Assembly: GCA_004431415.1 (NCBI GenBank)
Contig: QPMI01000093.1
Location: 188,800-252,799 of the forward strand
DNA: 64,000 nucleotides
Direction: 5' to 3'
Source: Cyanophora paradoxa CCMP329
Taxonomy: Eukaryota; Plantae; Glaucophyta
Shown here: one piece after another, positions 44,574-64,000 of the stretch
How the letters are laid out: every line of letters begins with the position of its first letter
Position numbering within the stretch: the first letter of the stretch is position 1
The notes under the pieces: model-generated
The model's input: the letters and a program-made list of their open reading frames with translations, nothing else
Told to the model about the DNA's origin: nothing
Databases searched by the model: none
Program-made: the position numbers and the translations under genes

Positions 44574-45263
44574 AACCCACGACCCACCGTGGCACGCCGA
44601 CCCACTTAACGGACAAGATATTTTTTGGTCGACCCACGGGCCGCCTCAAGCCTTAGATGGTAAGCCACAAGCCTCAGGGCTCAAGGGTAAGCCTTAGATG
44701 GGAAAAGCCCACAAGGGGGCACGCAGCCGCACGCTCCCAGGCTCCCAGCAGGGGTATAAAAACTAAAGCTATAGCTAGTACACTGCCCCGAGAGAAGCCT
44801 TGCATGCACTGCGGCAAGGCCGCCAGCGCTAGCGGGGGCTGGCGCGCTCTGCAGCTGTAGATCTAGCTATAGCTATAGAGTACGTGAACGAACTCTTGTA
44901 TACGTACACCGTATACGTCGACGCCGTGACGTCGCCTACATATACACGTATACGCGTACGTACGCGTCGAGTCGATCTAGACGCGTACGGCGGCGGTGCG
45001 TGCGTATGCCGTTTTTGCGGCATTTACATAAAGCCGGCTCCGCATATATATACGATTAAAGATGATCAAACTTAAACGTGTGTACATCTATATAGGTGGG
45101 CCTTTGTGAAGCGTTGAGCTCTCGAGCTTGCCCCTTCGCTGTCAATGTATTGTTAACCCTCGGAGGTTGATGAGTCACGCGTTGCGGAGGTTGCATTGTT
45201 ATATTGCATTCGGGGAGGCACGGGGACTAACACGTCCGACGTACCCCTCGGGGCCTCCGGCCT

Positions 45264-46757
45264 CTAACTATGCTCAGACTCTAACTGAATGCTGTACCCC
45301 CTCACTGGCCGAAGTGAGACGGTCCCCACTCGAGGTCGGGGTGGGGCCATGGGGGCCTCCGGCGGGGTACGATGCTCCCGCTTGCCAGCTCCATGTACTC
45401 CCCACGGGTTGTCTTCGTTTGCGAGGTCCCTGTAGTTGCCCTTTACGAGATCCGCCGCCGCTTTGCGCCAGCGAACGGCCACGTTGTACGTGTTGTCGAT
45501 GATGTTCTGCACTGTACCCTCCATGGGTATTAGGGACGGCCTATAGTCGACCTGTCTCTCACGCAGGTTCAATTCCCTTTGGTAGTAATCCACTGCGTCT
45601 GGGAGGGCCCTGAGCTCCAACGGGTGCTGGCCCGGGTCCGACGAGCTAATGAGCCCGGAGCGTTGCAGCGCGTTCACAGCCGCCCGCAGCATGATTTTGC
45701 CTACCCCCGCATCGCGTTATTCTGCTCGGGCGTCCCGTACCCCCCTGCGGCCCGTAATCGTTGTAGTAGCTCTCTATTTCGACTGTGGCCGGGCTAGTAC
45801 CAACCCGAGGCTGCACAAAGCCGTACAGCCATGCCATAGCGTCGTTGTCCGCGGAGCGGCCGCTCTCGGGAGAGGAAGAGAACACTTCGATTTTGAAGTC
45901 CCTCGTCCGCCGGTTGACTCGCGTCATTAGGTTGAGGGGTAGCGCGCATTGCCGAATTTATCAGGAAAGAGGCGGTGTAGCTTGAACCATGCTTCCTGAT
46001 CGCCGTACGACATTCGCTCGCGGCTCGCTGAGAATTTCTACCTGTACCCCTACTCGCGGTCGGGTACTTGTAGCCGGGCATCAGCCTCGCGCGCTTGCGC
46101 ATCTCCGCCTCCTCGGGTAGCCAGTTCTTCGGGTCGTTGCTCCACTCCTCCCATTCGCGTATGTCTCGCCCGACGTCACGTGGGGCGGGGGCGTTTATCG
46201 GTGGGGCGGGCGGGGCTGGCAGGGCCTGGCGCCGGGGTTGAGGCCCTGTTCCACGAGTACTCGGGGTACTCTTCCCAGCCCAGGGGTACCAGATTTGCCG
46301 GAATCGGCTCAACTTCGAATTGGGGCTTTTTGGTGTGATACTCATAGTTCGTGACGTACGCCGTCACAGCCGAGCGCAAGCGCGAGAGGTCGCGCAAATT
46401 TACGTCGTCCCATTCCGAGTCCCTTGCCTTCGCGTACCGCTCGAGGATTTGCATGCGAATGTGGTCCGGGAGGGTCGAGAGTATGCTGAGCTTGGAGCCC
46501 AGGGCGAACCAGATGCGCTTGAACTCGTCGATAATCCTGCCCTCGTCGTGGCTCCGGACGTATGAGGCCCCGCCATAGTTGTAATGGCTGTCCAGCCACC
46601 CTGCCCGGGCCAGCTCCAGCACCGGCCAGGGTTGGCGCTGTCGATTCGGTCGCGAGGCCTGCTCTACCACCCAGCGTCTAAGGTCCTTGACCTGATCTAT
46701 GAACTGTGCGATCACGTCCTTGGGCGCTTCCTCTGCATCCGACATTTGCAATTGCAC
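45264..46757 (-). CDS. Viral protein with a C-terminal GNAT acetyltransferase-like domain (ORF broken by homopolymer frameshifts)
   Basis: Adding one G to each of two G-runs (~45740 and ~45705) joins VEIESYYNDYGPQGGYGTPEQNNAMRGVGKIMLRAAVNAL (motif A-like) to LELRALPDAVDYYQRELNL (motif B-like). Upstream ORFs 46176-46757 and 45794-46345 overlap consecutively. Confidence 0.5.
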
Positions 46758-46795
46758 ACATCAAGAAATTCTAAACGCTACTGCGAGACCAAGTC

Positions 46796-47461
46796 ATGCA
46801 TACCGATACAGATTGCGAGACTTGCGAGAACTTGCAACAGGGGAGCGCGGCGTGGCACGCGGCGCGCCGCGAAAAGCTAACTGCCTCGAACTTTGCGGCT
46901 GCGTGCGGCATAAATCCCTGGAAATCCAGGGCCCGCCTCTGGGCGGAGCTAAGCGGCATAGCGGAGGAAAACAACTTCGACAACCCTGCGCTAACCTACG
47001 GGCATGACTATGAGCCCTTCGCGGTCTCTCTCTACAAAACGTCGAACAACAACGTGGACGTGCAACATACTGGATTGCACGAACATAAGGAACTGCCCTT
47101 CCTGGCGGGCAGCCCGGACGGGCTGATTGGAAGCGATCGTATACTTGAAATAAAATGCCCCTACAAACAAGAACTCTACGAAAAGGTCCCAACTTATTAC
47201 ATGCCCCAGCTCCAGGGCCTGCTGGACATAACGGGCCGCGAGTGGGCCGAACTTTTTTGCTTCACTCCTCTGCGCGTGCAAACGTGGTACGTCAGACGGG
47301 ACGAGAGGTACATCAAGCTCATGAGGAAGTGCTTACATCTATTTTGGATGCACGTCAAGGAGGGCACGCCGCCCGAGCCCTACAGCGATCGAATGAAGTC
47401 AGAGAACCTCAGCGAGGAGCAGGCGGCGCTGCGCGAGTTTAAGTCGTACGCCCTCCTCTAG
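46796..47461 (+). CDS. YqaJ-like viral recombinase / lambda-exonuclease family nuclease
   Basis: QGSAAWHAARREKLTASNF, YGHDYEP, LAGSPDGL (PD), LEIKCPY (ExK), YYMPQLQGLL and VRRD; intact 221 aa, intronless. Confidence 0.95.
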   Translation: MHTDTDCETCENLQQGSAAWHAARREKLTASNFAAACGINPWKSRARLWAELSGIAEENNFDNPALTYGHDYEPFAVSLYKTSNNNVDVQHTGLHEHKELPFLAGSPDGLIGSDRILEIKCPYKQELYEKVPTYYMPQLQGLLDITGREWAELFCFTPLRVQTWYVRRDERYIKLMRKCLHLFWMHVKEGTPPEPYSDRMKSENLSEEQAALREFKSYALL

Positions 47462-47843
47462 TGTCCGGACCTTTCCAATACTCTATATGATTATTGGGAG
47501 GGTCCGGACACGTCTCTTGGTCAGACTACTTCTGTCCCAGGTCTTTGGAATCTTAATATAAATTTTCCCGGGACCCGGGACAGGGCTTGGTCGGACTCAC
47601 CGTAGCTTGGTGTAGCTCAGGCCCAGGCCGGGTAGGCGAGTCTGTAATGAATCAGACCGCGCAGGATTTGGTTGAGCTGCTCGGTGCAGGGGGGCGGGAA
47701 GGCGAGGCCGCGGAGGGCCATAGAGACGTAGCGGAAGGGGTGGGGGAGGCGGCCCCTGTTATCCCACATGGCGTCCACTATGGCGTTGTGGACCACTTGC
47801 TCTGGGAGGGCGGGACGGGCCTGCGCGCACCGTTTCAGGGCCC

Positions 47844-50648
47844 TCAGCAGCCCTCGAAGATGTTGGAGTTGGCGTGCACCAGCGGGAGGGAGGGCTGGGA
47901 CGGCGGCGGCGAGCCCGGGGCCGAGCCCTGGGTGGCGAGGGCCTGCGAGGGCGCCGGCTCCAGCTCCATCTCGAACATACCGCCCTCGACGTCGACGGTC
48001 ACGGGCGGCGAGGCCGGGATCGCGCCGGCCTGCTGCGTGGCGGGGACCTGAGCCGAGAAGTTCTCGAGCCGCCACTCGCGGCAGCCCTGGCACTCACCTG
48101 GACGAAGACGGTGCGGTTGGCGACGGGCGGCGTCGGCAGGGCCTGCGCGGGGGCGTCACTCACAGAAGCCGAAGGCGCCGGCCTTGTGGGGCGGGGCGTC
48201 GGGGTCGCGGGGCGTGCTATAGGCCTCCGAGCCCTCCGATTCAGAGTCACTCACCGGGCTGAGAGGGTGGGGTGAGAAGAGGCCGAGGCGGGCCTTCTTG
48301 GCGGGCAGGAGGTGGGAGCCGTTGAGGGCGCAATCGGCGCCGTGGGCGCACCTCTCTCCGTAGGTGGGGCAGAGGGCCGGGGGCGAGGGCGCCGGAGCCA
48401 AGGGCGCCGGAGCCGAGGACGCCGGGGGCTGGAGGAGGCGGTGAGAGGGGCCGAGGAGGAGAGGAAGGGGGAAGGGCGCGGGCACCGGCGCCGGGACGAG
48501 GCCCTCCTCCAGCAGCCGCATCTGCGCCTCCTTCGCCTTCTCGTCGATGCGGGCCTCGAACGTCGCCCAGTTGAAGCCGACGGCGTCCGCCTCCGCCAGC
48601 TCGGGGAGGCCGTGCTCGTCGAACGCCAGCGCGGGCCGCCCGCTGAAGCCGAACGGGGCGGGGGGCGAGAGCGCGTTGTCCCCGACGCCCCAGACGGCGC
48701 TGAACGCCGCATCGTCCCAGCGCGCCTCCGCCTCCGCCTGGCCCTCGTCCCTTGCCTCGTCCACCTCCTTGGCGGAGAGCGACCCGATCTTGATGATGGA
48801 GGCCTGGATCAGCACAAACTCGCGCTGGAAGAATTGGACGAGCGGGATGGTAACTGCGGGAGAGGGGGTGAGCGGGGAGAGCGCGGGGCGCAGGCCAAGG
48901 GCGGGGGCGCAGGCCAAGGGCGGGGCGGACGCACATTCGATGCCGTAGGCCACCTCCTTGATGTAGCGGCCCCGGCGGCCGATCTCCTTGGCCAGCATGC
49001 TGCACTCCTTGCGCGCCGGGTGGCCGTGGCCCCACTCCATGGCGATCATCGCCTTCGCCAGACGGACGCCCTCGATGTGCCACTCGTCCATCAGCGCCTC
49101 CAGCTTGGCGCAGATGCGCATCCAGAAGAAGACGCGCTTGAGCTTGTCGCGGTCGAATTCGGCGTCGCCGCTCTTGCTGCCCCAGTCGCGCAGGTCCGTC
49201 TCCTCCGCCTTCTTCACCTTCTCGTACCAGCACTTGATCTTCTCCGCCTGGCGCTGGAACTCGTCCGCCCGCGCCGTGAGAACGTCCGACTCCTCCTGCG
49301 CTCCGAGGGCCCGGGGTCAGGGAGGAGAGGCGGGCTAAGCGGGGCGGCGGCGGACCGTGTGCGAGAGCTCGCCGACGATCACGGAGATGGCCGCCGAGAG
49401 GATCTCACGGGCGCGGGCCGGCCCGTTTGGGTGGCCCTCGCGCAGAACCTCCTCCAGCTTCAGCACGGCCGTCCGCGCGAGATCGCGGTGGCGCTGGCGG
49501 GTCTCGTCGCTCCGGCCCTGATCCACGAGAAGCTGGAGCTGGGGCCGCATGCCGGAGTCGCAGACGCTGGCGTACTTCAGAAGGGCCGCGCAGGAGAGCA
49601 CCTTCTGCACGCTGACCAGCCAGTACGCGTAGCCCAGCGGGCTCTCCGCGCTCGGGTTCTCCCGACCTGCGGACGCGACCTTAGCGCGCGCAGGGGCAGG
49701 GGAAAGGGGAAAGGGCGGGCTCTCGCGCACGTAAATGTCATCGGCGCAGGAGAGGAACATGTGATCAACGACGTCGAAGAAGCCGCCGGACGGGAGCGTG
49801 CCGACGCCGTGGTACGCGCCTTGGATGGTCTCGCCGGCGCAGATGCCGGCCTGGACGGTGACGGTGTACTGCGAGGCCGGCGGCCCCTCCTTCACGTAGA
49901 CGAAGTTGAGGTCGTACTTCTTGGCGTACGTCGGGTTGATGCGCTTGGTGACGATGACGTAATCGCACCGAACGCCGAGGCCGGACGGGCTGGCCTTCTC
50001 CTTCTCCGTCACCGACGCCAGGCACTGATCCCGCGCGATCAAGAGCTGCAGCGGCCCGCGCGTGAGCAAGCGCGGGCACGCGAGCGCAGGGAAGGGCCCT
50101 CACCCCGTGGGCGCCGCCGCTGCCGGATTTGAGGTCCGCGAGGAACTCCTTCTGCTCCGGAGTGCCGGAGAAGATCGCGCGCGGATGGAAATCGCGATGG
50201 AGCGCGATGCTGTTGAAGCAGCCCGCCGCCGCATTGTCGGACATCAGCAACAGCGCCACATCGCCGTGCGTGAAGCCGTACTTCGCCTTCACATGCTCCG
50301 GCAGCTCGTGAATGCTGTAAGGCACGATCTGCGCGCGGGGCACGCGAGCCGGGGCATGTGAGCCGGGGCCGAAGCGGTGCGGGCGAAACCGCGAACCTCG
50401 TTGAACTTATTCACCGGCGTGAACTGGCCCTTGGTCTTCAAGCGCTTCGGGTGGCCGTCCGTGTTCTGGATCTTCTTCAGCCCGCCGAACGGCTCGAAGC
50501 GCGGCACGCCGGCCGAGTTGAACACGCTATCGCAGGTCATCGCGTTGAGCGCCTCCTCCGCCGACAGGCTGCCGAGATCGCGGGCTATGCTGTCCTGCTC
50601 GCCGGGCTGCTGCTGCTTCGCGCACGAGCGGAAGGTCGCCGCCTGCAT
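47844..50648 (-). CDS. Large intron-containing viral-element protein, function unknown
   Basis: GT..AG introns at 50329-50396, 50046-50103, 49667-49730, 49296-49355 and 48854-48934 join ORF pieces 50289-50648, 49765-50343, 49335-50069 and 48156-49217 into one frame (one extra G needed after 49667). The 3' end is approximate. Confidence 0.65.
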
Positions 50649-50950: not shown

Positions 50951-53900
50951 ATGTCTCGGCTCGCGCTCCCTCCGGAGATCCCGGCTAAGCTGGCGAAGAA
51001 CACGCTGTACGACGTTCTCTGCGTCGGCGACAGCTTCGGCGTCGATTGGACGGTTTCGAGGCCGGCATCAGCGACCAGGCGAAGGAGGCGCAGGCGCGTG
51101 CGCTGGAGGATGGCATGCAGTTCAGCCCGAGCAGCAAGGATGTGCTGCGCAAGACCGAGCTGGCCGAGCGCAAGCGCAAGCTCGCCGCGGCGCGGACTTT
51201 GAACGCCGAGGGTGCCCCCGGCCCGTCGGTGCAGTTCTCCATCGACTCCGTCCTGTCGCGGCTGCGGCTCGCGGAGGTGCTCGCTGCCTCTTTCTCCCTC
51301 ACGCGCCCGGCTCGCAGCGGCTGAGGCGCCGCCGCGCTCGCAGGACGCGGACGTGCGGGCGATGCACGCGGCGCTGAACATGACGGAGGAGAACTTCGAC
51401 ACGCCGAGCAAGCCGAAGCCCGGGCGCGATTCCGACGCCCGCCGGCTGTTCGCGGCGCAGCGCCTGCGGCTGCTCATGGGCGCCGTGCCCCGGCACATCG
51501 CCAAGGGCGAGTGGCGCACGATTGGCCTGCTGGCGGGCCCGGAGGAGTTCTACTTCAACCGCATGGCGGAGGCGGCCCCGCACCTGCTCTGGCTGCTGGT
51601 GCTCAGCTCGGACCCGGCCTACACGCCCGAGGTGCGCCCCGGCCGCCCGTGCAGCCGCGGCCGCCCCTCCCCGCCGACCCCCGCCGGCCCGCAGAGGCTG
51701 GCGAAGGGCATCATGGGCGTCGAGGCGCGCTGCATCATGCGGAACAGCCGCGCGTTCATCACGCGCCACGAGAGCTCGGCGGTCTGGGGCGAGCGGCCGG
51801 ACACCGGCGTCCTCACCGACGCCTACGCCATCCGCATCGTGCTGGAGGCGGCCTGCCGGACGTGCCGGGACCGCCACGGGCGCCAGGGCATCTGCGCCTT
51901 CGACCTGGTTCCTGAGTTCGAGGTGCCCGGCGTCACCATCGGCGACCGCGTGCAGGTGCGCCGTTTCTATTTGGATGCTATTTAGATGCTATTTAGACTA
52001 TTTAGATGCCATTTAAACCCCCTCGCAGGTCATCCGCCGGTGCTCGATGCCGGACTCGCACGGGCGGCCCATGATCCACGGCGCCGTGAAGTACGTGGTG
52101 CCGCGGCGCACCCTCGCCCTCACCTTCTTCGTCCCCGTCTTCGACAAGGCGGCCGCCGCCGCCGCCGCCGCCGCCTCCCGCCCCGCCCCATGCTCGCGGC
52201 CGCGGAGTCCTCGGATTCCGACTCGGATTCCGAGGCGGAGCGCGAGGCCGAGGCCGCCGCCGCGGCCCGGGCGCTGGACTTCACGGAGGAGGAGCTGGAG
52301 CGGGCGCGGAGCCTGCCGCGCGCCGGCCAGGCGATGGCCGCGGCCTTCCAGGCGGCGATCGGCGAGGCGACGGCCTCCGCCTCGGGCGCCCGGGCCGGCG
52401 GCAGCATGATCACGGCGGAGGGCCTCGCGCGCGCCATGCGCGTGGCCCAGGCCCAGGCCCAGGCGAAGGGCAAGGGCAAGGGCAAGGCCGCCTACATCGA
52501 CCTGCGGTTCGAGGAGGAGGAGGCGGGTGCCCCGGCGGCGCGGCGCGATCTCGGCGAGGAGATGGAGGCGGCGGCCCCCAAGGCGGCCGGTGCGCCCTCC
52601 CCGCCCCTAATTTCTGAGCCTAGGGCGTTCCAGAGGCGCAAAGGAATGACCCTGCCCACAGAGGAGGAGCTGGAGGCCGAGCGCGAGATGGAGATGGAGG
52701 CCGCGCTGGCGGCGGCGGCGGACGCGAAGGCCTCGCGCGAGCTGGAGGTGGCGGAGGAGTACGCGATGGAGCTGGAGCGCGAGCGCGAGCGCGAGGGCGA
52801 GCCCGATGCGGAGCTGGCGGCGACGGTGGAGGCGGGGGCGGGGGACACCTTCGAGCCCGAGCCCCCCGTCGACGAGTTCTACCCCCTCCCGCCCTCCCCC
52901 TCCCTCGACGGCGCCCCGCCGCCGCCCATCGAGGAGTTCTCGGACGACGAGCCCGGCGACGCCGGCCCCAGGCCGCCCCTCGTCTCCCCCGCCGCCCGCC
53001 CGCCCCCGTGCCCCCGCCAGCCCCGCCGCCTCCGACGTCTCCTGGCGCCCGAGCGGCAACCCCTCGGCCTTCAGTCCCTTCCGCCCCTCGCAGCCCTCGC
53101 AGCGCCCGCCGCCCTCCGTCCAGGGTACCCCCTCGCCCGCCCATCCCCTCGCCGCCGCGGGGCACGCCCGTCGCCACGCCCGCCTCCTCCCTCGGCCACA
53201 TGCCCCTCCGCCCCTCCGGCCCCCCGCGCCGGCCGCCTCTCCCGCCGGGCCCAGCAGCGGCGCGAGCGCGAGCGGCAGCTGCTGCGCGATCAGCGGGCGG
53301 AGGCGGAGGCGGACCACGACGACGGCCAGGCGTCGGAGAGCGACGGCGAGCCGCCGCGCGCCACCAGGCTGGAGCTGGCGCGGGCGGAGCTGGCGGTGCA
53401 GCCGCGCGAGGCGCCCGAGATCGACATGTCCAAGTACGACGACGTGACAACGTACAGCAAGGACAACAAGTCCAAGAAGGAGGCGGCCATTCAGGATGCG
53501 CTCCGCCTCTTCGTCAAGAACAACGTGCGCCCCGCCCCCTTAGCTGCGCGCCCCGCCCCCTTAGAGGCCGGAGGCGGCCGTGGCCCAGCTGCTTAAGGCG
53601 CTGGGCCCGAGCCGCCTTCGGCCGGTGCGCCCCCCTCCCCGCGTTCGAACCCCGCTAACCCCCTTTTGCCGGCGCAGCGGATCGTGCGCCAGAGACCCTA
53701 CGGCCCGAACTCCCCGCCCACCTTCTACGTCGAGCTCCCGAACCTCTTCGTGTACGACAAGGTCAGCGCGAACAGGCACGCCGGGCGCGGGACGATGAAG
53801 GAGGTCATCCAGCTGCTGGCGATGACCTTCCACAAGACCTACGAGTCCAACCCCGGCTCCTTCGAGTTCACCTTCTCGAAGGAGGTGCTCTCGGGGCGGA

Positions 53901-56117
53901 CGCGCACGTTCGTGGAGGAGTCCCTCCAGCTCGAGGACGTCTGCCCCGAGATGCCCGTCATCCCCGGCTTCGCCTTCGCCTGCGACACGCGTGCGCCGCC
54001 CGTACCCCTGCGCCCCGCCCCGTACCCCGCCGACGCCCCTTGCGCAGATTTCGTGGTGCGGGCGCCGCAGGACAGCACGGGCAGCGCCTGCGTCCTCGTC
54101 ATGACGCACGAGGAGGCACGGGAGCGGTACGCGGGCTACATGAACACCTGCTACATCCAGGGGCGCCTGCCCGCGGGCATCGAGGAGGCGACCGAGACCT
54201 GCGACTGGCCCACCGTGTACGGCATGCTGCACCCCTTCATGCCCAACGTCGTCAAGCACCTGGCGGACAACGGCTACGTGACGGCCGACGAGTTCGGCTA
54301 CGCGGCGGCCGTCCTCTACGCCTTCAACCTCGTCGGGCCGTGGAACTTCTGCGACAAGCCCGTCTTCGACCGGGAGCCGCGCGCGGAGATCGAGCCGCCG
54401 TCCGAGGGCGCCATGCTGCAGTACTGCGGCATCATCAAGGGCCAGTCGGGCACAGGCAAGTCGATGGTGACGCAGATCATGACGGAGTGCCTGCCGCCGG
54501 GCCGCGTCTGCGTCTACCGCCCCTCCAAGGGCTCGGCCTTCTCGGAGCACGGCGGCGAGGAGGCGATCTGCATGGTGATGGCGGAGGGCCTCGACCCTAA
54601 GGCCTGCTCGGAGGAGGAGCTCAAGATGCGCTCCGGCGACGCCTACTCCCGCAACTTCAAGAACGTCCGCGGCGACGATGTGCGCACCAAGGCGACGCGC
54701 AAGGTGCTTGTCATCGTCTGCAACAGCTTCCCGCAGGTGCGCCCGTTCCCCTGCCCCCTTCCCCTTCCCCGGCGCCCTTTCTCACTTGCCCCGGCGCAGC
54801 TCGAGAACCGCATGCTCGAGTTCTTCGCCCGCGTCGTCCTGATCCCCTCGACCACAAGCCGGCCAAGAAGCGCACCTACCTCCACTCCGACATCCGCGAG
54901 AACGAGCTGCCGGCGCTCATGGTCGCGGCCTTCACCTTCGCGTGGAAGATCATCCACGCGCTCTCCGACGGCAAGGCCTCCTGCATCCAGGCCTTCGAGC
55001 CGGCGTGGCTGCGGGCGCAGCGCCTCGGCTTCTGGCAGGAGACGGCCTCCTGTCCCCTCACCCGCTTCATCATCGCCCACTGCGCCGTCGACCCCACCAC
55101 CTACGTCGCCGCCCCGAACACGGAGGGCTACATGACGAGCGTCGCGGGCATCGTCGAGTACATCGCGCGCACGGAGGGCCCCGACACCTCCGCCGCCGTC
55201 GGCGCCGACATCGAGAACGGCCGGCTGGACGAGACCCTCGCCGGCTTCGGCTCCTGGTGCCGCCCCTACTCCTACAAGCTCGGCGGCGTCTGGCAGACCT
55301 ACATCCGCGGCATCGTCCCCAAGGCCCCGCTCTCCCTCGGCGAGAGCCAGCCGGCGCTGGAGGCGATCGCGATCCCCGTCGCCCAGTTCAAGGACCCGGC
55401 GCCCGACGTCGGGCCCTTCCTCGTCAAGCCCCACACCAAGGGCAAGGGCAAGCGCACCCGCAACTCGGCGCCGGCCTTCCTCCCGCCCCAGCCCCCGCCA
55501 CGGCCCCCAGCAGCGCCCCGGCCAGCAGCGCATCGACGAGATGCTGCCGCGCCAGGTCCGGCCCCGCGTACCCCCGCCTTCCCTCCCGTACCCCCCTCCC
55601 CCGCCCCCTCCTGATCCAAGGGCAGGGTACCCCGACGAACGGCGGCGCGGGCCCGAGCGGCTACGGGAGCTCGGCCTCCTCCGCGAGCGCCGACGGCCCC
55701 AGCCCCCTCCCCGGCCCCGGCGCCGTCCTCACCGCGATCCAGGGCTTCGGGGCCCAGCAGGAGGCCGAGCGGCGGGCGCTGGCGGCGCGCCAGGCGCGCG
55801 AGGCGGAGGAGCGGCGCCAGGCCCTCTGGGCCCAGCGCCTGCAGGCCACCATCGCCTTCCGCGCCGAGCTGGACTCCGGCTTCCGCGCCGGCCAGATCGC
55901 CGGGGCGGAGGCCTCGGAGCGCTGGCGGGCGTTCGAGGCGGAGTCGGCGGGGCTGGCGAAGGGCCTCGGCTACAGCTACCGGCGCGTGCCCGTGCTCAAG
56001 GACTACGCGTCGGCCGCGGCGCGGGAGGCCTCGCGGGCGGAGATCGACGCGGCGGAGGAGCAGGCGGCGCGCGAGGAGGCCGAGGACAACGCGCGCTTCC
56101 GGCACCTGCACCACTGA
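50951..56117 (+). CDS. Large D5-like superfamily 3 helicase, intron-containing
   Basis: Walker A IIKGQSGTGKS, Walker B-like ICMVMAE, motif C LVIVCN, Arg finger FFARVVLIP. Introns at 51277-51343, 51632-51694, 51956-52028, 53525-53677, 53991-54047, 54737-54799 and probably 55556-55620. Three 1-bp homopolymer deficits (~51048, ~52188, ~54846). Confidence 0.85.
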
Positions 56118-56166: not shown

Positions 56167-56355
56167 ATGGCCTTCGAAGCTTATCCTGCCCACTACTCGC
56201 TAGGAGCGCTGGCCGCGACCCTCACCTGGCTCCTCGGCGGCACCCCCACGGCCTCGGCGGTCATAGGCGTGGGCTTCGGCTACGCCGCCAAGTCCCTCTA
56301 CGCCCCCGGCGGCGCCTCGCAGGCGGCGGCCGGCATGCGCCCCGCCGGGCGCTAA
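56167..56355 (+). CDS. Small hydrophobic protein, 62 aa, two TM-like segments
   Basis: YSLGALAATLTWLLGG and AVIGVGFGYAA; tightly packed ORF with a TTTTTTCT motif upstream. Confidence 0.6.
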   Translation: MAFEAYPAHYSLGALAATLTWLLGGTPTASAVIGVGFGYAAKSLYAPGGASQAAAGMRPAGR

Positions 56356-56450
56356 CTTTTCAAAGTTCATTCTCCCCTCCCCCTTTTCCGAGTTCCGAGT
56401 CCGTTGGCGTTCCCTTTTAAATTTTCTTCATTCTCGTTACACGTTCGAAG

Positions 56451-56930
56451 ATGTCGAGCGCGGTAGAGAAGCTGCTGTGCACCGTGTTCAAATCGGATTC
56501 GCGATGCAGCAAGATCGGCGAGGCGGCGAGGGCTAAGGGCGGGGCGGCGGCGGAGGGGCCCAGGGTGAAGGCGGCGGATCCCGCGCCGCCGTCGCTGAAA
56601 ACGATCAAGGGGGCGGGCAAGGGCAGGAGCGTGGGGGCGCTGCCCCTCGTGGCGATCGCGCCGGGGCAGAGGGAGGCGGCGCACGCGGCGACGGCGGCGC
56701 TGGCCGCGCGGCGGCAGGCGGAGGCCTACCCGTGCCTGGGCCGGGGGCTGCACCCGCCGGCCGGCCGCCCCTACGCCGTGAGCGCCTACTTCGACGAGGC
56801 CAACCGGCTGAGCTGCCAGGAGCTGTGCGACAACCGCATGCGGCGCGCCGTGGACGGGCACCTGCCGCTGCTGGTGGCGCTGGGCGGCTCGCTCCTGATG
56901 GTCTGGTACCTGCGCGGCCTGGTCATTTAG
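56451..56930 (+). CDS. Viral-element protein, 159 aa, Cys-containing, C-terminal TM anchor
   Basis: ATG ORF ending HLPLLVALGGSLLMVWYLRGLVI. Confidence 0.65.
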   Translation: MSSAVEKLLCTVFKSDSRCSKIGEAARAKGGAAAEGPRVKAADPAPPSLKTIKGAGKGRSVGALPLVAIAPGQREAAHAATAALAARRQAEAYPCLGRGLHPPAGRPYAVSAYFDEANRLSCQELCDNRMRRAVDGHLPLLVALGGSLLMVWYLRGLVI

Positions 56931-56956
56931 ATAGTTTTTCGAAGTCTAGGTCAAAG

Positions 56957-57358
56957 ATGGGCTGGGTGGACGCCGTGCTGACCAAGGTCTTCGGACCGAA
57001 GAGCGCGCAGCCGCCGCCGAGCTTCAACCTGGCCGCGGCGATCAGCACGACGATCGAGCGCAAGAACAACGAGCTCATCCTAAAGAACGACGGCAAGCTT
57101 CCCTGGGCCGACGTGGCCGCGGGCGCACTCGGCAGCACGCTGACGGGAATCGATCGGACGGGCGCCGCGGGCGTGAAGGTCGGGCAGGCGGTTGCGGCCG
57201 TGCCGGAGCTTGCGATGAAGGGCTGGCACTACGCCAAGATCGCCGCCGGCGTCGCCGCGGTGCTCCTTGCGATCTGGCTCGCGTGGCAGCTGCGCGGCGC
57301 CTACCAGGGCGCGCGCCTGCAGAGCGCCCAGCTCGACTATTTTCTAAAGGCTAGGTAA
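56957..57358 (+). CDS. Viral-element membrane protein, 133 aa
   Basis: MGWVDAVLTKVFG...KIAAGVAAVLLAIWLAWQLRG; starts 26 nt after the previous stop. Confidence 0.65.
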   Translation: MGWVDAVLTKVFGPKSAQPPPSFNLAAAISTTIERKNNELILKNDGKLPWADVAAGALGSTLTGIDRTGAAGVKVGQAVAAVPELAMKGWHYAKIAAGVAAVLLAIWLAWQLRGAYQGARLQSAQLDYFLKAR

Positions 57359-57370
57359 AGCGAGCGAACC

Positions 57371-57743
57371 ATGCGCGGCGGCTCTTCCCCCGTGTTTCCT
57401 TCGCTGAGAACCCGGTGGCGAACGCAGTCGCCCCTACCCCCTGGAGCCCGGAGTGAAGCTGGAGCGTGCGAACGCAGTCTCCGTCAAGAAGGCCAAGCGC
57501 ACGCTGGCGCTGGAAGTCCCGGTCGCGGAGGATACGGAGAAGGTTGCATTCAACAAGCGCAAGACGTACAAGGCGATACGCGAGGGACAGCTGCTGCCCA
57601 CGGACTCGGTTCCCGGGCTGCCGGGCACCACGGCCGGCGAGCTCCTAGTGCGCAACCTGCGCCTGCAGTACGTCTCCCGCCTCCGCCGCTCCAAGGCCAA
57701 GAAGGCGCGCCTGGACTCGGGCGATAGCAGCTCTAGCTCGTAG
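57371..57743 (+). CDS. Basic (Lys/Arg-rich) small protein, probably one ORF with a homopolymer frameshift
   Basis: ATG at 57371 is preceded by ATTTTCTAA; the coding-like frame 57453-57743 reads KLERANAVSVKKAKRT...RLRRSKAKKARLDS. Confidence 0.5.
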
Positions 57744-57770
57744 GGCTCTGTACTGTTGTATTCAATGCCT

Positions 57771-58055
57771 TTACCAGTTCCTGTTCCTATCCCAGAGCAC
57801 GACTCGGGTGAAGGGCACGGTCATAGCGAACATGAACTCGGCGAACTTTGCAAAGTTCATCAGGGTTCCCAGGCGGGGATCCTCCCAGTAGATCGCCTCG
57901 CGCAGCGCCTCGTAGACGCGCATGAGGGAGCGCTCGTTCTCCGTCGCGAAGGCGTCGCCGGGCTCGTCGGGGTCGGGATCCGTGAGCTCGGAGTACTCGT
58001 CCGAGCTGCCCGCGCTCTCGGCACCTGCGGCGGGGTCGGGCGAGGGGTCGGGCAT
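57771..58055 (-). CDS. Hypothetical acidic protein, 94 aa
   Basis: Clean ATG ORF preceded by ATTTTCTAG. Confidence 0.6.
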   Translation of the reverse strand: MPDPSPDPAAGAESAGSSDEYSELTDPDPDEPGDAFATENERSLMRVYEALREAIYWEDPRLGTLMNFAKFAEFMFAMTVPFTRVVLWDRNRNW

Positions 58056-58091
58056 TCTCTACTAGTAGAAGGGCTAGAAAATCACTAGCAA

Positions 58092-58433
58092 TCACGGGCG
58101 CCGGAACTCCATCGAGTCGCCGCGCCAGTACTTGTTGCCGGAGGCGAGCAGCTTCATCGGCTCGCCCGTCGAATCGTGCTTCCAGGCCTCGCCGTCCCAG
58201 AGGGCCGTGCCGCCGTCCTCTAGCTTGAGGCGGTGGCCCGGCTCGAGCCGGTTGCCGTCGAGCATGCGGCCGGCCATGAGCGCCAGGTCCCACTCGGTGA
58301 GGTTGCGCTGCTCTGCGGGGGTGAGGCCGCGCTCGACGCGCTCGGGCTGGCGCGCCTCGCGCTCCATGCGGCTGAGGCCTACCAGGAAGAAGATGGGCAA
58401 CGCAAAGGCCATGAGATCTAGCAGGGCCTCCAT
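58092..58433 (-). CDS. Small protein with an N-terminal TM segment, 113 aa
   Basis: MEALLDLMAFALPIFFLVGLSR...; preceded by CTTTTCTAA. Confidence 0.6.
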   Translation of the reverse strand: MEALLDLMAFALPIFFLVGLSRMEREARQPERVERGLTPAEQRNLTEWDLALMAGRMLDGNRLEPGHRLKLEDGGTALWDGEAWKHDSTGEPMKLLASGNKYWRGDSMEFRRP

Positions 58434-58443
58434 TGGGCAAGAC

Positions 58444-58732
58444 TTAGAAAAGGTTCCGGACCAGGCCCGAGAGCTGCGGGCCCAGGCGCCGGGCGGCGTA
58501 GTAGAGCGCGGCCGCCGCCGCCGCAAGGATCAGAAGGCGCGGCGGGCCGCGCGCCGGCTCCTCCAGGGTCAGGTCCACGGTCTCCGGCCCGCGCGCCGGA
58601 GCCGCCAGGATCTCGGGCTCGGAGCAGAGGGACTTGGGCCCGCGGCGGCGGCGCTGCTTGGGCGCCGAGGCGGCGGCGGTGAGAAGGTCCTCAGGCTCCT
58701 GCTTGATACCTGCGCAATCGGTGAAGTCCATG
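58444..58732 (-). CDS. Small protein with a C-terminal TM segment
   Basis: MDFTDCAGIKQEP...RLLILAAAAAALYYAARR; preceded by AATTTTCCAA. Confidence 0.55.
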
Positions 58733-58799
58733 CTTGCTGGGTACCTTGGAAAATTGTGGGAGGCGTCCGGAGTGTGCGAACGTAGCTCCAATGGGATTT

Positions 58800-60246
58800 G
58801 CGTCATTTACGTCCGCGTCATTTACGTCACGGAGTTTGCCGGCGACTCGGGACTCGGGCCCAACTTCTCCCGGTAAGTTCGAGACTTGAACTCGGCGGGG
58901 GTACCCCCGGTGTCCTAGTGTCCTAGTGTCCTAGTGCTACTAGCTAGGTGGTATCGATATCTAGCTAGCTAGCGCTAGCGCTTGCTTAATTAATTAACCT
59001 GAAGGGTCGCGTCATTTACGTCAGCGTCATTTACGTCACGGAGTTTGCCGGCGACTCGGGACTCGGGCCCAACTTCTCCCGGTAAGTTCGTCACGACCAG
59101 TAGCTACTAGTACCGCTAGTACTACGTAGTACTACTTAGTACTACTTGGTACTACTTAGTACTACTAGCTTAGTACTAGTAGCCACCGATACTGGTACAG
59201 CTTTTATAGATTTAAGCATTCATTCAATGTGAATAACGATAATAGTAATAATAATAACGATAAGTAATAGGGATACCCTATTTTTCCAAGTCTCGAACTT
59301 ACCGGGAGAAGTTGGGCCCGAGTCCCGAGTCGCCGGCAAACTCCGTGACGTAAATGACGCTGACGTAAATGACGCGACCCTTCGGTAACCTCCGCAACCC
59401 TTCAGGTAAATGTCAGGTAACTTCAGTTGAGTTAATTAAGCAAGCGCTAGCTAGCTAGATATCACAGCTCTACCTTGCCCAAGTTGATGGTATCTAGCAG
59501 GGCCTGCTCCTCCAAGTCTGCACCGCCGCCGCCGCCCAGCGCTAGCGCTAGCTCGATACCGCCTCCGGCCTTGATCTCCCTTGGCTCCAGCCACCTGAGG
59601 GGCTCAGGCCACCTCCTCCTGGTGAAGCCGGTATCGTTGCTCTTGTCCAGCTTGAGGTAGCGGTAGGGCGCCGGCGCCGGCCAGTCCGGCCTGTGGCCGC
59701 TTGCCTCCTTGGCTATGTCCTTGGGCCTACGCGGTCGCAGGTCCGCCTTGGCCTTCGCCCTCTGCAAGGGGCCCAGCGCCTTGAACTTCGGTGCCTTGGT
59801 CGCCGGCAGGGCCTTCGGCTGGGGCTTCACCGCCTTCGGCTGCTGAGGCCTTAGCTGCTTCGATTTCGGCATACTTCTTGCTCATAAATGAGAAAAGCGC
59901 CTCGAAGTCGGCCTTTATCTCCTCCTTGGTCCAGGATGTCACCTGATCCGGGTCACCTGAGAACGGCGCATCGAACGCCACGTGGAGCGATTTGCAGGCC
60001 TGAGCTATCATTGGCTCGGGCCAGGCCAGCTCGATCAGCTGAAGGTAGATGTTCAGGGCCTTGTCGAGCTTGGCGCCCTGAGAGACTAGCTGGGAGATAG
60101 CGGGCTCCATGGTACAGCAGAGCTTTAGAAAATGGCGCCAAGTCCAAGTCCTTTTTTACGGGCGAGGCCTGGGCCGGGGCCAGGGCCGAGTCCCAACTCC
60201 GTGACGTAAATGACGCTGACGTAAATGACGCGGACGTAAATGACGC
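58800..60246. repeat. Iteron-like repeat system and a large inverted repeat (candidate replication origin/enhancer)
   Basis: Nine copies of GACGTAAATGACGC at 15-bp period in four clusters (58800-58828, 59009-59037, 59347-59375, 60203-60246). ~80-bp modules occur direct (58800, 59009) and inverted (59287-59385) around an AT-rich core. Confidence 0.9.
59462..60110 (-). CDS. Hypothetical viral-element protein(s): 127-aa ORF overlapping a basic 136-aa ORF (possible frameshift)
   Basis: ATG at 60110 is preceded by ATTTTCTAA; overlapping ORFs 59727-60110 and 59462-59872. Confidence 0.5.
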
Positions 60247-60371: not shown

Positions 60372-60581
60372 ATGTGCATCCCCACGTACTTCACCTGCTG
60401 TCTCACCTTCGGCATCTTCGCATACGTCATATACGACGATGAGTTCGACCGAAACACGTTCTACTTCTGCAAGCTCCTTCGCGACATTTCGTCGGAGCAC
60501 CGCAAGGGCGATGAGTATGATTGGATTCAACTGCTCCCCTCAAGAACGAGATCGTACTGTGGAGAGAGAAGTGCATTGTAG
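60372..60581 (+). CDS. Small hypothetical protein, 69 aa, hydrophobic N-terminus
   Basis: ATG ORF downstream of a CACCTGA repeat cluster. Confidence 0.35.
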   Translation: MCIPTYFTCCLTFGIFAYVIYDDEFDRNTFYFCKLLRDISSEHRKGDEYDWIQLLPSRTRSYCGERSAL

Positions 60582-60755
60582 GCAGGTTCAAGATTAGCTC
60601 GATTCGTGTAGCCGTCGTAGAGGATCTGATGGTGAATTGAACACGTGTTTTACCTGAATCACCTGAGCGCTCACCCGAGGTCAGCTGAAGTCGGGTGGGG
60701 CGCCCTTAAATATTTTCTAGCGCTAGGCTGAAGCACACTCTAAGCTAACGCAAAC

Positions 60756-61536
60756 ATGGCCACCGTCCGCAACGCCAACGAGATCGACCCGCCAAGCTCG
60801 CCTTCGAGATCGACGCCACCGGCCGCATCAAGGCCAAGTACGACGGCCTGCAGGGCCTCATGATGTACGCGCCGCCCATGGTCACGATCAACCCGTGCAT
60901 CAACACAGAGCAAGGCAAGGCGTGGAGCGACGAGAAGAAGGCCTTCGTCATGGAAGAAAACGGCGGATTTTACACGCTGGACCTCACCGATCTCAGCGCC
61001 GTCGACGGCCAGACGAACCCAGCCGCGGACGAGTTCCTCAAGCTGCTGGAGGCCCTGGACGCGAAATTCTGCGAGTTCGTGCAGCAGAACCAGGCCAAGC
61101 TCAAGGTCTCGCCCGGCCGCTCCCTCTCCAAGGATCAGATCTCGGTGCTGCAGACCCCCAGCGTGCGCATCAAGGTCGACAAGGAGTCGGGCCAGGCCTT
61201 CTACAAGTACCTCAACATGCGCATCCGCACCCAGACGATGGCGGGCAAGCGCAAGACCGTGCCCGTCGTCGACATGTCCAACTACCTCATCACCGAGCGC
61301 GCCACCATCGGCACCGGAGACCTGGTGGCGGCGCTCATTAAAATCGACACCGCCTACGCCATCCCGAGGGCAAGTTCGGCCTCAAGTGGTCCTTCCTCGC
61401 CGTGCAGCAGTGCAAGGTCGGCGCCTTTCGCTTCGCCGGGCGCGCCCCCGAGCTGGCCTTCAAGCCCTACGACAACGAGGCCGATTTCGAGCCCTACCTA
61501 AACCCCGAGTCTATGTACGCAGCCCCCATGCAGTAG
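60756..61536 (+). CDS. NCLDV-type (T7 gp2.5-like OB-fold) single-stranded DNA-binding protein
   Basis: Restoring one C at ~60789 and one at ~61364 gives MATVRNANEIDPAKLAFE...FYTLDL...FLKLLEALDAKFCEFVQQN...GDLVAALIKIDTAYAIPEGKFGLKWSFLAVQ plus an acidic/aromatic tail, matching the pattern I recall for large-DNA-virus SSBs. AATAAA follows the stop. Confidence 0.7.
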
Positions 61537-61589
61537 CTCGGACGAATAAATTGTGAATTTTTGGTGCAATTGATTACACGCGTTTACAC

Positions 61590-62393
61590 TCAAAGGCCGT
61601 TGAACTTGCCGCCCACCGCCCTGGGCTCCGCCGCCGTCGAGGCCGCCGCCTCCGTCACCTCCTTCATTACCTCCGGGTTCGCGTTCGCCGCGTGCACCGC
61701 CAGCACCGTCTGCACCAGGGCCATCCCCAGGCGCGCCTCGGGCCCCAGGGTCACGTAGCGCGAGTACTTGATCACCAGCTCCTCTAAGATCGGCTGCACC
61801 TGGTCCATCGAAGAGAGCGTCGCCTGCCCGAGCCCGTCGAGCTTCAGGCCGATCGGATCGTACGCCTTGTTCAGGTGCTCCAGCGAGTGCATGCCCGCGA
61901 TCAGAAAGAGGCGCGCCGCCTCCAGCGAACCCCGCGTGCTCAGCTCGCGCTGAATCTCCTCGTACTCTTCCTTCAGCTCGTCCAGCGGCGTGGCCAGGCT
62001 CAGCTTCTTCGTGGACGTAAGCTCGCCCCCGAACGAGCGCCGGTACTGCGCGATCTGTCGCAGGACCTGCTTCTTCTCGTCCACGTCCACCTGCGCCTCG
62101 TCCCGCGGCCGCTCCTGCAGGTCGATTCCCAGCGCCTTTTTCACGCTCTGCTCCTTCTTCTTCGTCATTTCGATGTGCTCCTGCACGCTGAAGCCCGCGC
62201 CCTTGCTCGGCGCCGTCGGCGGCACCGCGGGCCCGTCGCCCGGCAGCGCCATCCTGTCGGCCTTCGGCGCCTTCTCCCCCTTTTCCTTGCCCTCCTTCGC
62301 GGGGCGGCCCTTCTTCCGGGGCTGCGGGATTCCCACGGGGTTCGGCCCGTCCACGGCCAGCGCCTCGAAGCCAAGCATCGCCGAGGGGTCCAT
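61590..62393 (-). CDS. Conserved NCLDV-like protein (DUF5767-type)
   Basis: LDELKEEYEEI...LEHLNKAYDPIGLKLDGLG...ILEELVIKY...GPEARLGMAL...VH resembles the E-x-L-N-x-x-F-D-P-x-x-x-K-L-D-G ... EEL-x-x-KY ... PE-x-RL pattern recalled from mimi/phycodnavirus proteins. Confidence 0.7.
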   Translation of the reverse strand: MDPSAMLGFEALAVDGPNPVGIPQPRKKGRPAKEGKEKGEKAPKADRMALPGDGPAVPPTAPSKGAGFSVQEHIEMTKKKEQSVKKALGIDLQERPRDEAQVDVDEKKQVLRQIAQYRRSFGGELTSTKKLSLATPLDELKEEYEEIQRELSTRGSLEAARLFLIAGMHSLEHLNKAYDPIGLKLDGLGQATLSSMDQVQPILEELVIKYSRYVTLGPEARLGMALVQTVLAVHAANANPEVMKEVTEAAASTAAEPRAVGGKFNGL

Positions 62394-62422
62394 CCTTTAC
62401 GCCTGCCCCTTAGAAATATTTT

Positions 62423-62752
62423 TCACTCCGAGGTCAGCTCGACGAAGAGCTCGATGTAAAGCCAGAGCTTCTCGCGCAGCTCGGGCCCGCTGCCGTAGAA
62501 GAGCGAGCGCACGGCCGAGGCGTACTCCTGCGGCAGCCTCTCGAAAACCGAGTCGTCCTTCGCCTTGATCAATTCCGCCTCCGCGTTGATGTGCCTCCTG
62601 AACAGAACGATGACCGCCGTGGCCCCGATGCCGCGCAGCGACTGGATCTGCGCCCGCACCCCGGGCTCCTTGGCCTCCGGCTCCAGCAGGTCGAGGAAGC
62701 GGCCCCAGCGCGCCTCGATTTGCTCGCCCAGCGTCGCCTCCGTCGCAGCCAT
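62423..62752 (-). CDS. Small helical protein resembling a conserved NCLDV hypothetical family, 109 aa
   Basis: F..HI..E.ELIKAKDDSVF...REKLWLYIELFVEL pattern; tightly packed ORF. Confidence 0.55.
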   Translation of the reverse strand: MAATEATLGEQIEARWGRFLDLLEPEAKEPGVRAQIQSLRGIGATAVIVLFRRHINAEAELIKAKDDSVFERLPQEYASAVRSLFYGSGPELREKLWLYIELFVELTSE

Positions 62753-62771
62753 GCTACGCGTGCTTCAGAAA

Positions 62772-63937
62772 TTAGCGTCCGCCGCTGCCGCTGCCGCTGC
62801 CGCTGCCGCCGCCGCTGCCGCTGCCGCCGCCGCTGCCGCCGCCGCCGAGGAGGGCGTTTGCCGCTTGCTCGTACATTGCCGCCTTGCGCGCGCTGGTCTC
62901 GCGGAGGAGGGTGGCCTGCGCGGTCTCGGTGCCCTTCACGAGAGCCTGGAAGGCGGTTTGAATCGTGGTCTGGCTGCGCTCACCGGTGCCTGCCATTCCG
63001 GCGACGGTTCCCAGGCCCCGCAGCCCCGCAATCGAGCCTAACGTTGCGGTATCCGCATAGGGTCGGCTTCCTACGGCCGGATTCACGACGGCCGGCAGCA
63101 GGTTCTGGTCCGCGTACGGCGTCGCCGTCGCCAGCGCGGGCCCGCGCGTGCCGACCTGATCCATGAGCATCGCCCCGAACGGGTTGCCCCGGCTGAAGTC
63201 CACGTCGTTGCGCCCGTAGGGCTTGTTGACGGCGCTGCTGATGTTGGCCGTCTGCGCGTTGAACATGGGCGAGAGGTCGGGGGTGTAGCCCGCGCGCAGC
63301 CCTGGGGTTCTCCGTCGTCTGCCCGTAGCGGCCGGCCGGCCCGAGCAGGTTCTCCTTCTCGATCTCTTCCATCGTCTTGATCCAGCCGCGCTCGCGCGCC
63401 CACTTCATGACGAGATCATCGTAGTTCATCGGGAAGAAAACCTTCTGGTACTTGTCGAAGCGCTGAATTTCGATATCCTGCTCGATCATGTTTGTAATTC
63501 GCTCCAGCAGCTCGGGGTAATATTCCTCGAGCATTTTGGCGACGCCCGGCTGCTTCAGGTCGAAGGCCGTCATCGCCCACTGGTCGAAATCGCGAATCAT
63601 GATTTCCTTCCGCAGCACGAACGCATTCTCGACGTCCTCCTCGCTGATCTGTCGGCTGGGGTAGGTGTTCTGCAGCTGCTGTCGGATGCCCATGCGCATC
63701 AGCTTCTCCATGGAGGGCGTGTACTTCATCGCGGCAGGGTCTTCGTATTCCCCCGCTGAGCCCCAGGCCACGTGCCTGATCCTCGGCGTGTAGACGTCCG
63801 CCTTTGTCCCATCTACGACGGCACCTCGGGCATGACCGTGCCCGGAAGGAACTTGTTCACGATGCCGTCCATGTCGCCTTCAGGTCGTTCTTCAGCGACT
63901 GGCGCTGCTTCTTAGAGCCCTCCCCAATGTCCATCAT
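62772..63937 (-). CDS. Hypothetical viral-element protein (~390 aa) with a Gly/Ser tail, broken by homopolymer frameshifts
   Basis: ATG at 63937; single-base restorations join the pieces to ORF 62980-63771 (RDFDQWAMTAFDLKQPGVAKMLEEYYPELLER) and ORF 62772-63266 ending GGGGSGGGSGSGGGSGSGSGSGGR. Confidence 0.55.
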
Positions 63938-64000
63938 AGAGTGGCCCTTCGTCATCGTGCCTCGGTTAGGATCCCAGTGGGAAAATTTATTGGTTCACAT

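Follow-up and report, generated by a model that had tools for sequence, protein, structure and literature searches.

The analysed window is a 64,000-nucleotide stretch of Cyanophora paradoxa CCMP329 DNA in which host genes are followed by a repeated element; at least 19 kb of this element lies inside the window, and its right side continues beyond the window end. The features are listed below from left to right, with the supporting evidence in brackets.

41389..42878 (-): GTP cyclohydrolase I gene of the host flank, with introns, outside the element (Pfam E=4.5e-9; single-copy depth of ~100 in run X1)
43111..44553: high-copy non-coding repeat separating the host gene from the element (depth reaching 18,000 in X1)
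44521..45117: single-copy spacer leading into the multi-copy element (exact unitig depth of 119 in X1 and 24 in X6, equal to host depth)
45264..46745 (-): frameshifted ORF or ORFs in the Mriya_1 position, head-to-head with YqaJ (reading frames)
46796..47461 (+): YqaJ/lambda-type PDDEXK exonuclease, intronless (Pfam E=8.1e-30)
47700..50648 (-): predicted intron-containing gene with an uncertain 3' end (GT-AG introns of 68, 58, 64 and 60 nt)
50951..56117 (+): Rep-like gene of ~1,500 aa with 8 predicted GT-AG introns of ~57-153 nt (sister gene models mapped onto the window)
56167..58732: seven short intronless ORFs, four on + and three on - (reading frames)
58800..60246: non-coding repeat region, including ORF 59727-60110 (-) (repeat scan; fold z=-27.8)
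60372..60581 (+): short ORF with an N-terminal hydrophobic segment (hydrophobicity)
60756..61536 (+): SSB, frameshifted in the assembly and homologous to the protein at the gamadvirus PEV_26 position (blastp, HMM)
61590..62393 (-): Mriya_48 (DUF5767), short form (Pfam E=2.7e-13; HMM E=8e-32)
62423..62752 (-): PEV_20-like 109-aa protein (HMM E=2e-4 and conserved position)
62772..63955 (-): Mriya_51-like virion protein, frameshifted here and ~374 aa in sister copies (HMM E=1e-7, alignment)

In the assembly, the element is contiguous with host genes, as an earlier note on this DNA had claimed; in addition to the GTP cyclohydrolase I gene, the flank contains a host gene of the HSP70 family (Pfam E=4e-16). 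That note had placed the start at 44,574, which is too far to the left, as 44521-45117 is single-copy and the multi-copy element begins at ~45,090-45,117. The high-copy repeat in front of the spacer has inverted arms of ~190 nt (43111-43301 and 44362-44553, 84%). The junction, proposed in the note as a point to check, is supported by a single-copy unitig at host depth that enters the left edge in two runs, but no unitig among the short-read assemblies bridges 43079-44521. Short-read depth from ~45,100 to the window end was 15-40 times the single-copy depth in three DNA runs, with single-copy and element unitigs at 98-119 and ~2,000-4,100 in X1, 22-27 and 338-643 in X6, and 5-8 and 152-198 in X4, respectively, and the element/host depth ratio was alike in runs of 2012, 2019 and 2024. 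A few subfamily-specific pieces of the element had a lower depth than its other unitigs. Paralogous gene models of the element occur on 43 named contigs; on seven contigs the helicase occurs together with a virion-block gene, at a distance of 4-12 gene models in six of the seven, and on tig00000342 just five gene models separate two opposed copies of Mriya_51. As to copy number, which the note had suggested checking, the element is a family of dozens of copies, not a single insertion.

Between 45100 and 64000, ~86% of the sequence falls within gene spans, introns counted. The description of this region as densely packed ORFs holds to that extent, but 47.7-56.1 kb is taken up by two long genes for which spliceosomal introns are predicted. 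These genes, divergent and with predicted GT-AG introns, fill the central 8.5 kb and were overlooked in the earlier note; the GC content of this block is 71%, compared with 56-68% in the flanking segments. The many small membrane proteins reported there are reduced to several: a strong hydrophobic segment was present in only 4 of the 14 proteins tested. ORFs 56451, 56957 and 58092 each have a predicted transmembrane segment. The ORFs at 45.3-46.7 kb were considered as Mriya_1 and rejected, similarity to Mriya_1 being absent. Homologues of the adjoining YqaJ were found at 32 of 39 gamadvirus-type loci, with identity of up to 43%.

When exons 1-3 of the minus-strand central gene are spliced, 264 aa remain open, while the unspliced frame ends at codon 120. 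The spliced protein contains HRD and YHG motifs, and we treat a 2-oxoglutarate/TET-like dioxygenase as a lead for its function. An AlkB profile built from five sequences scored 0.6 bits against this protein, a value reached in 6 of 200 shuffles; no TET reference was found among 401 actinobacterial genomes, and a PDB sequence search with the minus-strand exon returned no meaningful match.

The plus-strand Rep-like protein consists of an N-terminal domain without assignment, a low-complexity linker and a C-terminal SF3 helicase, and its gene contains single-base frameshifts within homopolymer runs. Although the Pfam match of the helicase was only a weak AAA_22 (E=0.0014), the ESM Atlas places it nearest to Parvo_NS1/CRESS SF3 helicases (0.88-0.91; top 0.91). 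Judged by eye, the helicase presumably has Walker A, B', C and arginine-finger-like motifs, with a degenerate Walker B. There was no similarity to the one gamadvirus helicase-like protein compared, L040 (P=2.8%, a low-complexity match only). For the N-terminus, the gamadvirus HUH profile gave P=0.1%, with degenerate HUH-like motifs seen by eye only; residues 1-335 had zero neighbours in the ESM Atlas, AlphaFold modelled the N-terminal 885 aa at a pLDDT of 33, and a PDB sequence search with Rep gave no meaningful match. The introns are predicted from gene models and open frames, with RNA support from one joint just downstream and from partial contigs. RNA-type contigs cover 48-58 kb, the RNA type of the six runs that hold them being a guess; none of the listed runs is recorded as RNA. 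One contig of this guessed type, and no DNA run, skips a 74-nt GT-AG stretch at 56128-56203.

The repeat region at 58800-60246 contains a perfect 90-nt inverted repeat (59001-59090 and 59294-59383), a 14-mer present nine times, and five TAGTACTAC sites in the inverted-repeat spacer. We regard this region as a candidate origin or regulatory region. The idea that TAGTACTAC may be a rolling-circle nick site is weak, because two of its seven sites lie in host DNA and most sites of a looser pattern are found outside the array.

The window ends in a virion block preceded by the SSB. The SSB had no meaningful match in Pfam, PHROG or NCBIfam and was modelled by AlphaFold at a pLDDT of 36; it nevertheless matches the PEV_26-position protein at 29 of the 39 gamadvirus-type loci by blastp (best E=1.7e-18; HMM E=2.7e-19). 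The YqaJ exonuclease, SF3 helicase, NCLDV-type SSB and DUF5767-like protein named in the earlier note are upheld. By analogy (PMC11253617), Mriya_48 is a predicted envelope/structural protein. Mriya_51 was matched at 37 of the 39 loci, and among the copies its core is almost invariant and its ends are variable in the alignment, which suggests selection. A sister copy has a capsid-like gene as the upstream neighbour of Mriya_51; this gene is known from one fused gene model (P0222) of that copy and not from the window. The N-terminal ~400 aa of P0222 matched Capsid_N with E=0.001 and 19.1 bits (Pfam cut-off, 24), its comparison with the gamadvirus MCP alignment gave hhalign E=3e-4 at a probability of 39%, and a PDB sequence search returned nothing.

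To place the element, we used 38 IMG/VR contigs retrieved via a DUF5767 alignment, with the gene order of PEV2 in Table 1 of PMC11253617, from which gene labels were assigned by position; representatives of these contigs encode Capsid_N, Pox_A32, Pox_VLTF3 and a HUH-motif protein. Window proteins match five gene clusters of these 20-44 kb viruses, three being mriyavirus core genes (PDDEXK/YqaJ, Mriya_48, Mriya_51) and two gamadvirus-specific (SSB/PEV_26, PEV_20), and the order Mriya_51-PEV_20-Mriya_48 is retained. Profiles for A32, VLTF2, VLTF3, minor capsid, HUH, Mriya_1 and Mriya_50 gave nothing significant in the window (short or variable genes such as Mriya_1 and Mriya_50 may escape such a search), and neither a major capsid protein match nor an integrase was found there; for the capsid, A32, VLTF and HUH genes that the note had proposed to search for, the P0222 match, below the cut-off, is what was obtained. 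PolB, retroviral-integrase and RuvC domains were absent from the 32 window reading frames scanned with Pfam, and the genes present do not form a Polinton-like set. The combination of an SF3-like helicase with no PolB in the window is one expected of Mriyaviricetes (SF3 or SF2 helicase, no DNA polymerase), and the PEV_26 SSB and PEV_20 are those of Gamadviridae, but SF3_hel2 and placement within that clade were not recovered. In trees of Mriya_48, a single gene compared without Yaravirus or Zoravirus references, the short form found here branches outside the gamadvirus clade and outside the long-form group, and it is on this tree that the note's suggestion of a new lineage depends. The note's integrated, mriyavirus-like relative of Nucleocytoviricota is supported by the five homologues, the kept gene order and the capsid-like neighbour of Mriya_51 in the sister copy; membership of Mriyaviricetes is unproven, since the window yielded no HUH, VLTF2/3, RuvC or A32 and its helicase is unlike the gamadvirus one. 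When IMG/VR and JGI contigs were scanned with single proteins, no close free-virus relative emerged, and phage and plasmid tblastn gave no meaningful match. One phage-like YqaJ with 26% identity appeared in the contig scan.

Based on the multi-copy state, the five mriyavirus/gamadvirus homologues, their conserved order and the linkage of helicase and virion block at other loci, we interpret the repeated element as the likely provirus of a small DNA virus related to mriyaviruses, which would replicate in the nucleus and combines an intronless virion module with a predicted host-style spliced replication module (probability of roughly 70%). The two GC-rich central genes would be expressed by host RNA polymerase II and the spliceosome, and the genome would be copied by the SF3 helicase, SSB and YqaJ exonuclease together with a host DNA polymerase, perhaps starting at the inverted repeat of 58.8-60.2 kb. 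As no integrase was seen, new copies might be inserted by YqaJ/SSB-type recombination or host repair. A particle, predicted here from genes, would be built from small membrane proteins together with Mriya_51, Mriya_48 and a double-jelly-roll capsid. Such behaviour would resemble that of a temperate mriyavirus, yet on a separate branch and with a helicase other than the gamadvirus one. A more specific version is offered tentatively: an undescribed, family-level, glaucophyte-infecting lineage of small Nucleocytoviricota-related viruses that would be actively amplifying as 40-90 proviral copies, in which a single spliced parvo/CRESS-like Rep replaced the mriyavirus HUH and helicase, and which may carry a spliced TET-like enzyme against host CpG silencing, with a punuivirus-like latent/lytic split in 20-30 kb.

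The 71% GC and host-like introns of the central block, a helicase that resembles parvo/CRESS Reps and not gamadvirus SF3_hel2, and the presence of both modules on just 7 of the 43 listed contigs would also suit a composite transposon-like element, in which a Rep/SF3-helicase replicon containing introns (47.7-56.1 kb) acquired a mriyavirus-derived block and spreads in the nucleus without particles. We consider this improbable, as both modules are similar in depth, their order recurs at several loci, the near-invariant Mriya_51 core with variable ends suggests selection, and the low overlap is consistent with two partial samples of ~80 copies (32 x 18 / 7). An ordinary member of Mriyaviricetes, Yaraviridae-like or Zoravirus-type, with its HUH, VLTF and ATPase genes beyond 64,000, overlaps with the provirus reading and differs only in novelty. 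In its favour are the three core and two gamadvirus genes, the possibility that 5 kb or more of the element extends past the window (Mriyaviricetes genomes have 35-45 kb) and the lack of Yaravirus or Zoravirus rows in our trees; the spliced Rep-like helicase, unlike the mriyavirus helicase compared, and the five gene models between the opposed Mriya_51 copies of tig00000342, a weak hint of a short right arm, make it distinctly unlikely.

Nucleocytoviruses also have DUF5767 and YqaJ, and methylated viral gene clusters have been reported in the C. paradoxa genome, where endogenous viruses were noted as GEVEs in the available text of PMC12344493. A fragment of such a large giant-virus insertion is nonetheless very unlikely here, because Mriya_48 is a short form outside the long-form group, Mriya_51 and PEV_20 match small viruses only among those compared, and a single GEVE would not be expected as dozens of nearly identical copies with a sharp edge on the left. 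Misassembly with a virus co-sequenced in the culture, for which the repeat at 43079-44521, spanned by no short-read contig, leaves room, is the least credible reading in view of the host-depth unitig entering the left edge, the stable depth ratio over the years and the many assembled contigs with copies; a co-sequenced free virus is unlikely.

Among described systems, Gamadviridae, Pleurochrysis endemic viruses and NCLDV-like dwarf viruses (PMC11253617, 10.1101/2022.07.28.501842) share the five homologues (24-43% identity in aligned stretches), the order Mriya_51-PEV_20-Mriya_48 and the absence of PolB, and one member, Phaglo-G, was found in an algal genome assembly. In contrast to this group, Mriya_48 here lies outside the clade, Mriya_50 does not occur in its usual place, the capsid-like gene of the sister copy, not a minor capsid gene, adjoins Mriya_51, 13 kb separates SSB from PDDEXK, the helicase has introns and is dissimilar to SF3_hel2, and dozens of genomic copies exist. 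Zoravirus (VC102), VC134 and VC218 (10.64898/2026.06.19.733378), compared by description only, are likewise Nucleocytoviricota-related viruses with Mriya48, of 20-30 kb and with HUH in some only, but commonly have RVE or tyrosine-recombinase integrases, none of which were seen here. Parvovirus NS1 and CRESS-virus Rep have SF3 helicase features in common with the Rep-like protein, which differs in its ~1,500 aa, its splicing, its degenerate Walker B and a HUH limited to HUH-like motifs by eye. A similar split, with intron-bearing host-like latency genes beside a virus-type virulence/virion module, is described for the punuivirus GEVE of Chlamydomonas in the accessible part of 10.64898/2026.10.09.758095; that virus is a giant with ~500 genes and a TET gene implicated in demethylation, while the element has ~20 genes, many copies and a putative TET-like function.

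Mriyaviruses have been proposed to resemble giant-virus ancestors; Yaravirus is their sole isolate, and no integration genes are known for them (10.64898/2026.06.19.733378). Finding a deep-branching relative as dozens of nearly identical and apparently transcribed copies in a model alga that is in culture, and for which long reads and a methylome have been published, makes integration without integrase, reactivation, and the joining of spliced host-like replication genes to an intronless virion module testable. Tables S2 and S4 of PMC10120064 list 366 MCP genes from the genome of C. paradoxa, with clusters of 272 and 94, both labelled 'new', and HHpred matches to ascovirus, iridovirus and Pyramimonas-virus capsids; as far as the available parts of that paper go, Cyanophora MCPs are only counted, without mention of Cyanophora in the main text. 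The element may be one of the endogenous viruses counted there, and would then give a host and a gene map to capsid clusters so far only counted.

A Pfam scan of 32 frames recovered YqaJ and DUF5767. At E<=0.001, DUF5767 had 1,498 relatives, among which the best foreign matches were of a short form (220–260 aa), and 34 aligned short-form sequences were used to retrieve 38 IMG/VR contigs of 9–44 kb. Clustering gave these contigs one common gene order, which agrees with that of PEV2 in PMC11253617 (Table 1), and representatives encode NCLDV capsid, A32 and VLTF3 domains and a HUH-motif protein; from the gene order we infer that they are gamadviruses. By blastp against 39 loci (the 38 contigs and one phage-like YqaJ locus), window proteins matched YqaJ in 32, SSB in 29, Mriya_51 in 37, PEV_20 in 4 and Mriya_48 (DUF5767) in 38, the last count reflecting selection since the loci had been fetched with Mriya_48. 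Profile matches in the window had E-values of 6e-54 for YqaJ, 2.7e-19 for SSB, 8e-32 for Mriya_48, 1e-7 for Mriya_51 and 2e-4 for PEV_20. The YqaJ exonuclease, NCLDV-type SSB and DUF5767-like protein of the earlier note were recovered, and the integrated mriyavirus-like virus that it proposed is supported by homologues of five mriyavirus or gamadvirus genes in a multi-copy element. The element is real, endogenous and present in many copies; we consider it likely (about 70%) that it behaves as a temperate mriyavirus would, and it is a candidate member of Mriyaviricetes.

The same note had called for HMM searches for capsid, A32 ATPase, VLTF2/3 and HUH; the ATPase, VLTF3, VLTF2, minor and major capsid, HUH, Mriya_1 and Mriya_50 profiles gave no significant match within the window. 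The capsid gene of this copy probably lies just past 64,000. In P0222, a gene model from a sister copy, a ~400-aa upstream gene is fused to Mriya_51; this upstream part matched Capsid_N at E=0.001, below the cut-off, and, across 87 columns, the alignment of gamadvirus capsids (E=3e-4, P=39%).

In a FastTree phylogeny of 172 Mriya_48 sequences, the window protein fell on the short-form side, as did an ENA protein that is 76% identical to it, both outside the smallest clade containing all 38 IMG/VR sequences. A quick IQ-TREE run on 60 rows (12 of 38 IMG/VR, 30 of 49 short and 16 of 83 long forms) placed the pair between two groups, one gamadvirus-like (SH-aLRT 98) and one of long forms (99). By these tests, which cover one gene without Yaravirus or Zoravirus sequences, the element is not a gamadvirus. 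The right-edge gene matched only Cyanophora paradoxa EukProt gene models. Relatives beyond EukProt were the ENA protein (P0045, 3.4 kb contig, 76% identity in Mriya_48) and a Logan protein (P0223, 2.7 kb contig, about 50% identity in Mriya_51), which may come from a free virus or from a different glaucophyte.

Endogenous viruses of broadly this type are already known, also in the C. paradoxa genome. PMC10120064 lists 366 C. paradoxa capsid genes in two clusters labelled 'new', PMC12344493 describes GEVEs and 32% CpG methylation in this species, and PMC12220804 mentions a C. paradoxa PLV. The accessible text of a PLV framework preprint does not mention Cyanophora, and its supplements may bear on the element. 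No description of this gene content was found in the accessible literature on Cyanophora or glaucophyte endogenous viruses or on DUF5767. The suggestion of a new lineage is supported in part: the general kind is known, the lineage, copy number and spliced Rep-like module appear undescribed, and in the trees of this one gene Mriya_48 lies outside the IMG/VR clade.

The central block (47600-56120, GC 71%) contains two divergent genes with predicted introns. The plus-strand gene encodes ~1,500 aa in sister models, requires 8 GT-AG introns when mapped on the window, and resembles Parvo_NS1/CRESS SF3 helicases in its C-terminal part, in keeping with the SF3 helicase reported earlier. It matched neither the one gamadvirus helicase-like protein compared nor gamadvirus HUH. 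Candidate HUH-like motifs in its N-terminus were read by eye against the consensus, without statistical support. At 52026-52200, in the Rep N-terminal region, the sister model P0035 has ~35 more residues between two short repeats, which the window copy lacks. Four candidate introns were recognised in the minus-strand gene; with the first two spliced out, 264 codons stay open, versus 119 unspliced. Its product shows HRD and YHG motifs and is a tentative candidate for a dioxygenase; an AlkB profile of 5 sequences scored 0.6 bits, a value reached by 6 of 200 shuffles. An inverted ~80-nt segment (48501-48580 / 51036-51114, 77% identical) is common to both genes, and the ~30-aa motifs that it specifies in the two proteins resemble each other.

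Contigs of run X15, which we guess to be RNA, cover the central block. One of them lacks a 74-nt stretch with GT-AG ends (56128-56203), a gap that occurs in none of the DNA runs. RNA-type contigs also skip two stretches with CT..AC ends at 56907-57127, which suggests a spliced antisense transcript across small membrane-protein genes. At 58800-60246, a 14-mer with TGACG half-sites occurs nine times near the starts of adjoining ORFs; it may resemble bZIP-bound promoter elements.

At least half of the 56100-64000 words were present in 14 of the 24 runs listed, all 14 from one organism. Four runs were compared in depth against 41000-60900. Single-copy unitigs had depths of 98-119, 22-27 and 5-8 in DNA runs X1, X6 and X4, and long element unitigs had ~2,000-4,100, 338-643 and 152-198, apart from a few subfamily pieces of lower depth; this indicates ~15-40 near-identical copies of the main subfamily. 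By hand tally, element gene models occur on at least 43 named contigs, one of which may be that of the window itself; at least 32 of those listed carry virion-block genes, at least 18 the helicase and at least 7 both, all lower bounds as one cluster entered the tally with 15 of its 22 members. On six of seven listed contigs carrying both modules, 4-12 gene models separate helicase and virion-block genes. Many window frameshifts fall in C or G runs with one extra base in short-read contigs (at least 12 of 65 rows); these are likely long-read errors, not assignable copy by copy. On tig00000342 (P0003, P0222, P0235, P0240), two copies of the virion block appear to run in opposite directions, five gene models separating their Mriya_51 genes; they are either arranged head-to-head or an artefact of the assembly.

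Host DNA makes up the left 43 kb of the window. It has short introns, and HSP70-family and GTP cyclohydrolase I genes are among its contents. One feature separates the latter gene from the element:

43111-44553, high-copy repeat with inverted arms

This repeat is non-coding and MITE-like, with arms of ~190 nt and an inner hairpin (43777-43845), and short-read contigs show many rearranged variants. The element had been described as contiguous with host genes. An exact single-copy unitig in X1 and X6 covers 44521-45117 and stops where multi-copy sequence starts. No unitig of the four runs crosses 43079-44521, which leaves the connection to the host gene supported but unbridged.

In the host GCH1 region (41628-42636), alternative bases reach ~40-45% of depth in DNA runs, therefore pointing to two alleles or paralogues; the genome paper (PMC6704402) favours haploidy for C. 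paradoxa. Also in the host part, 1.52 kb is duplicated head-to-tail at 33758-36796 (99.8% identity), by recent duplication or assembly artefact, and short gene fragments are duplicated at 87-95% identity (16995-17164, 20204-20373, 19954-20552, 27298-27432).
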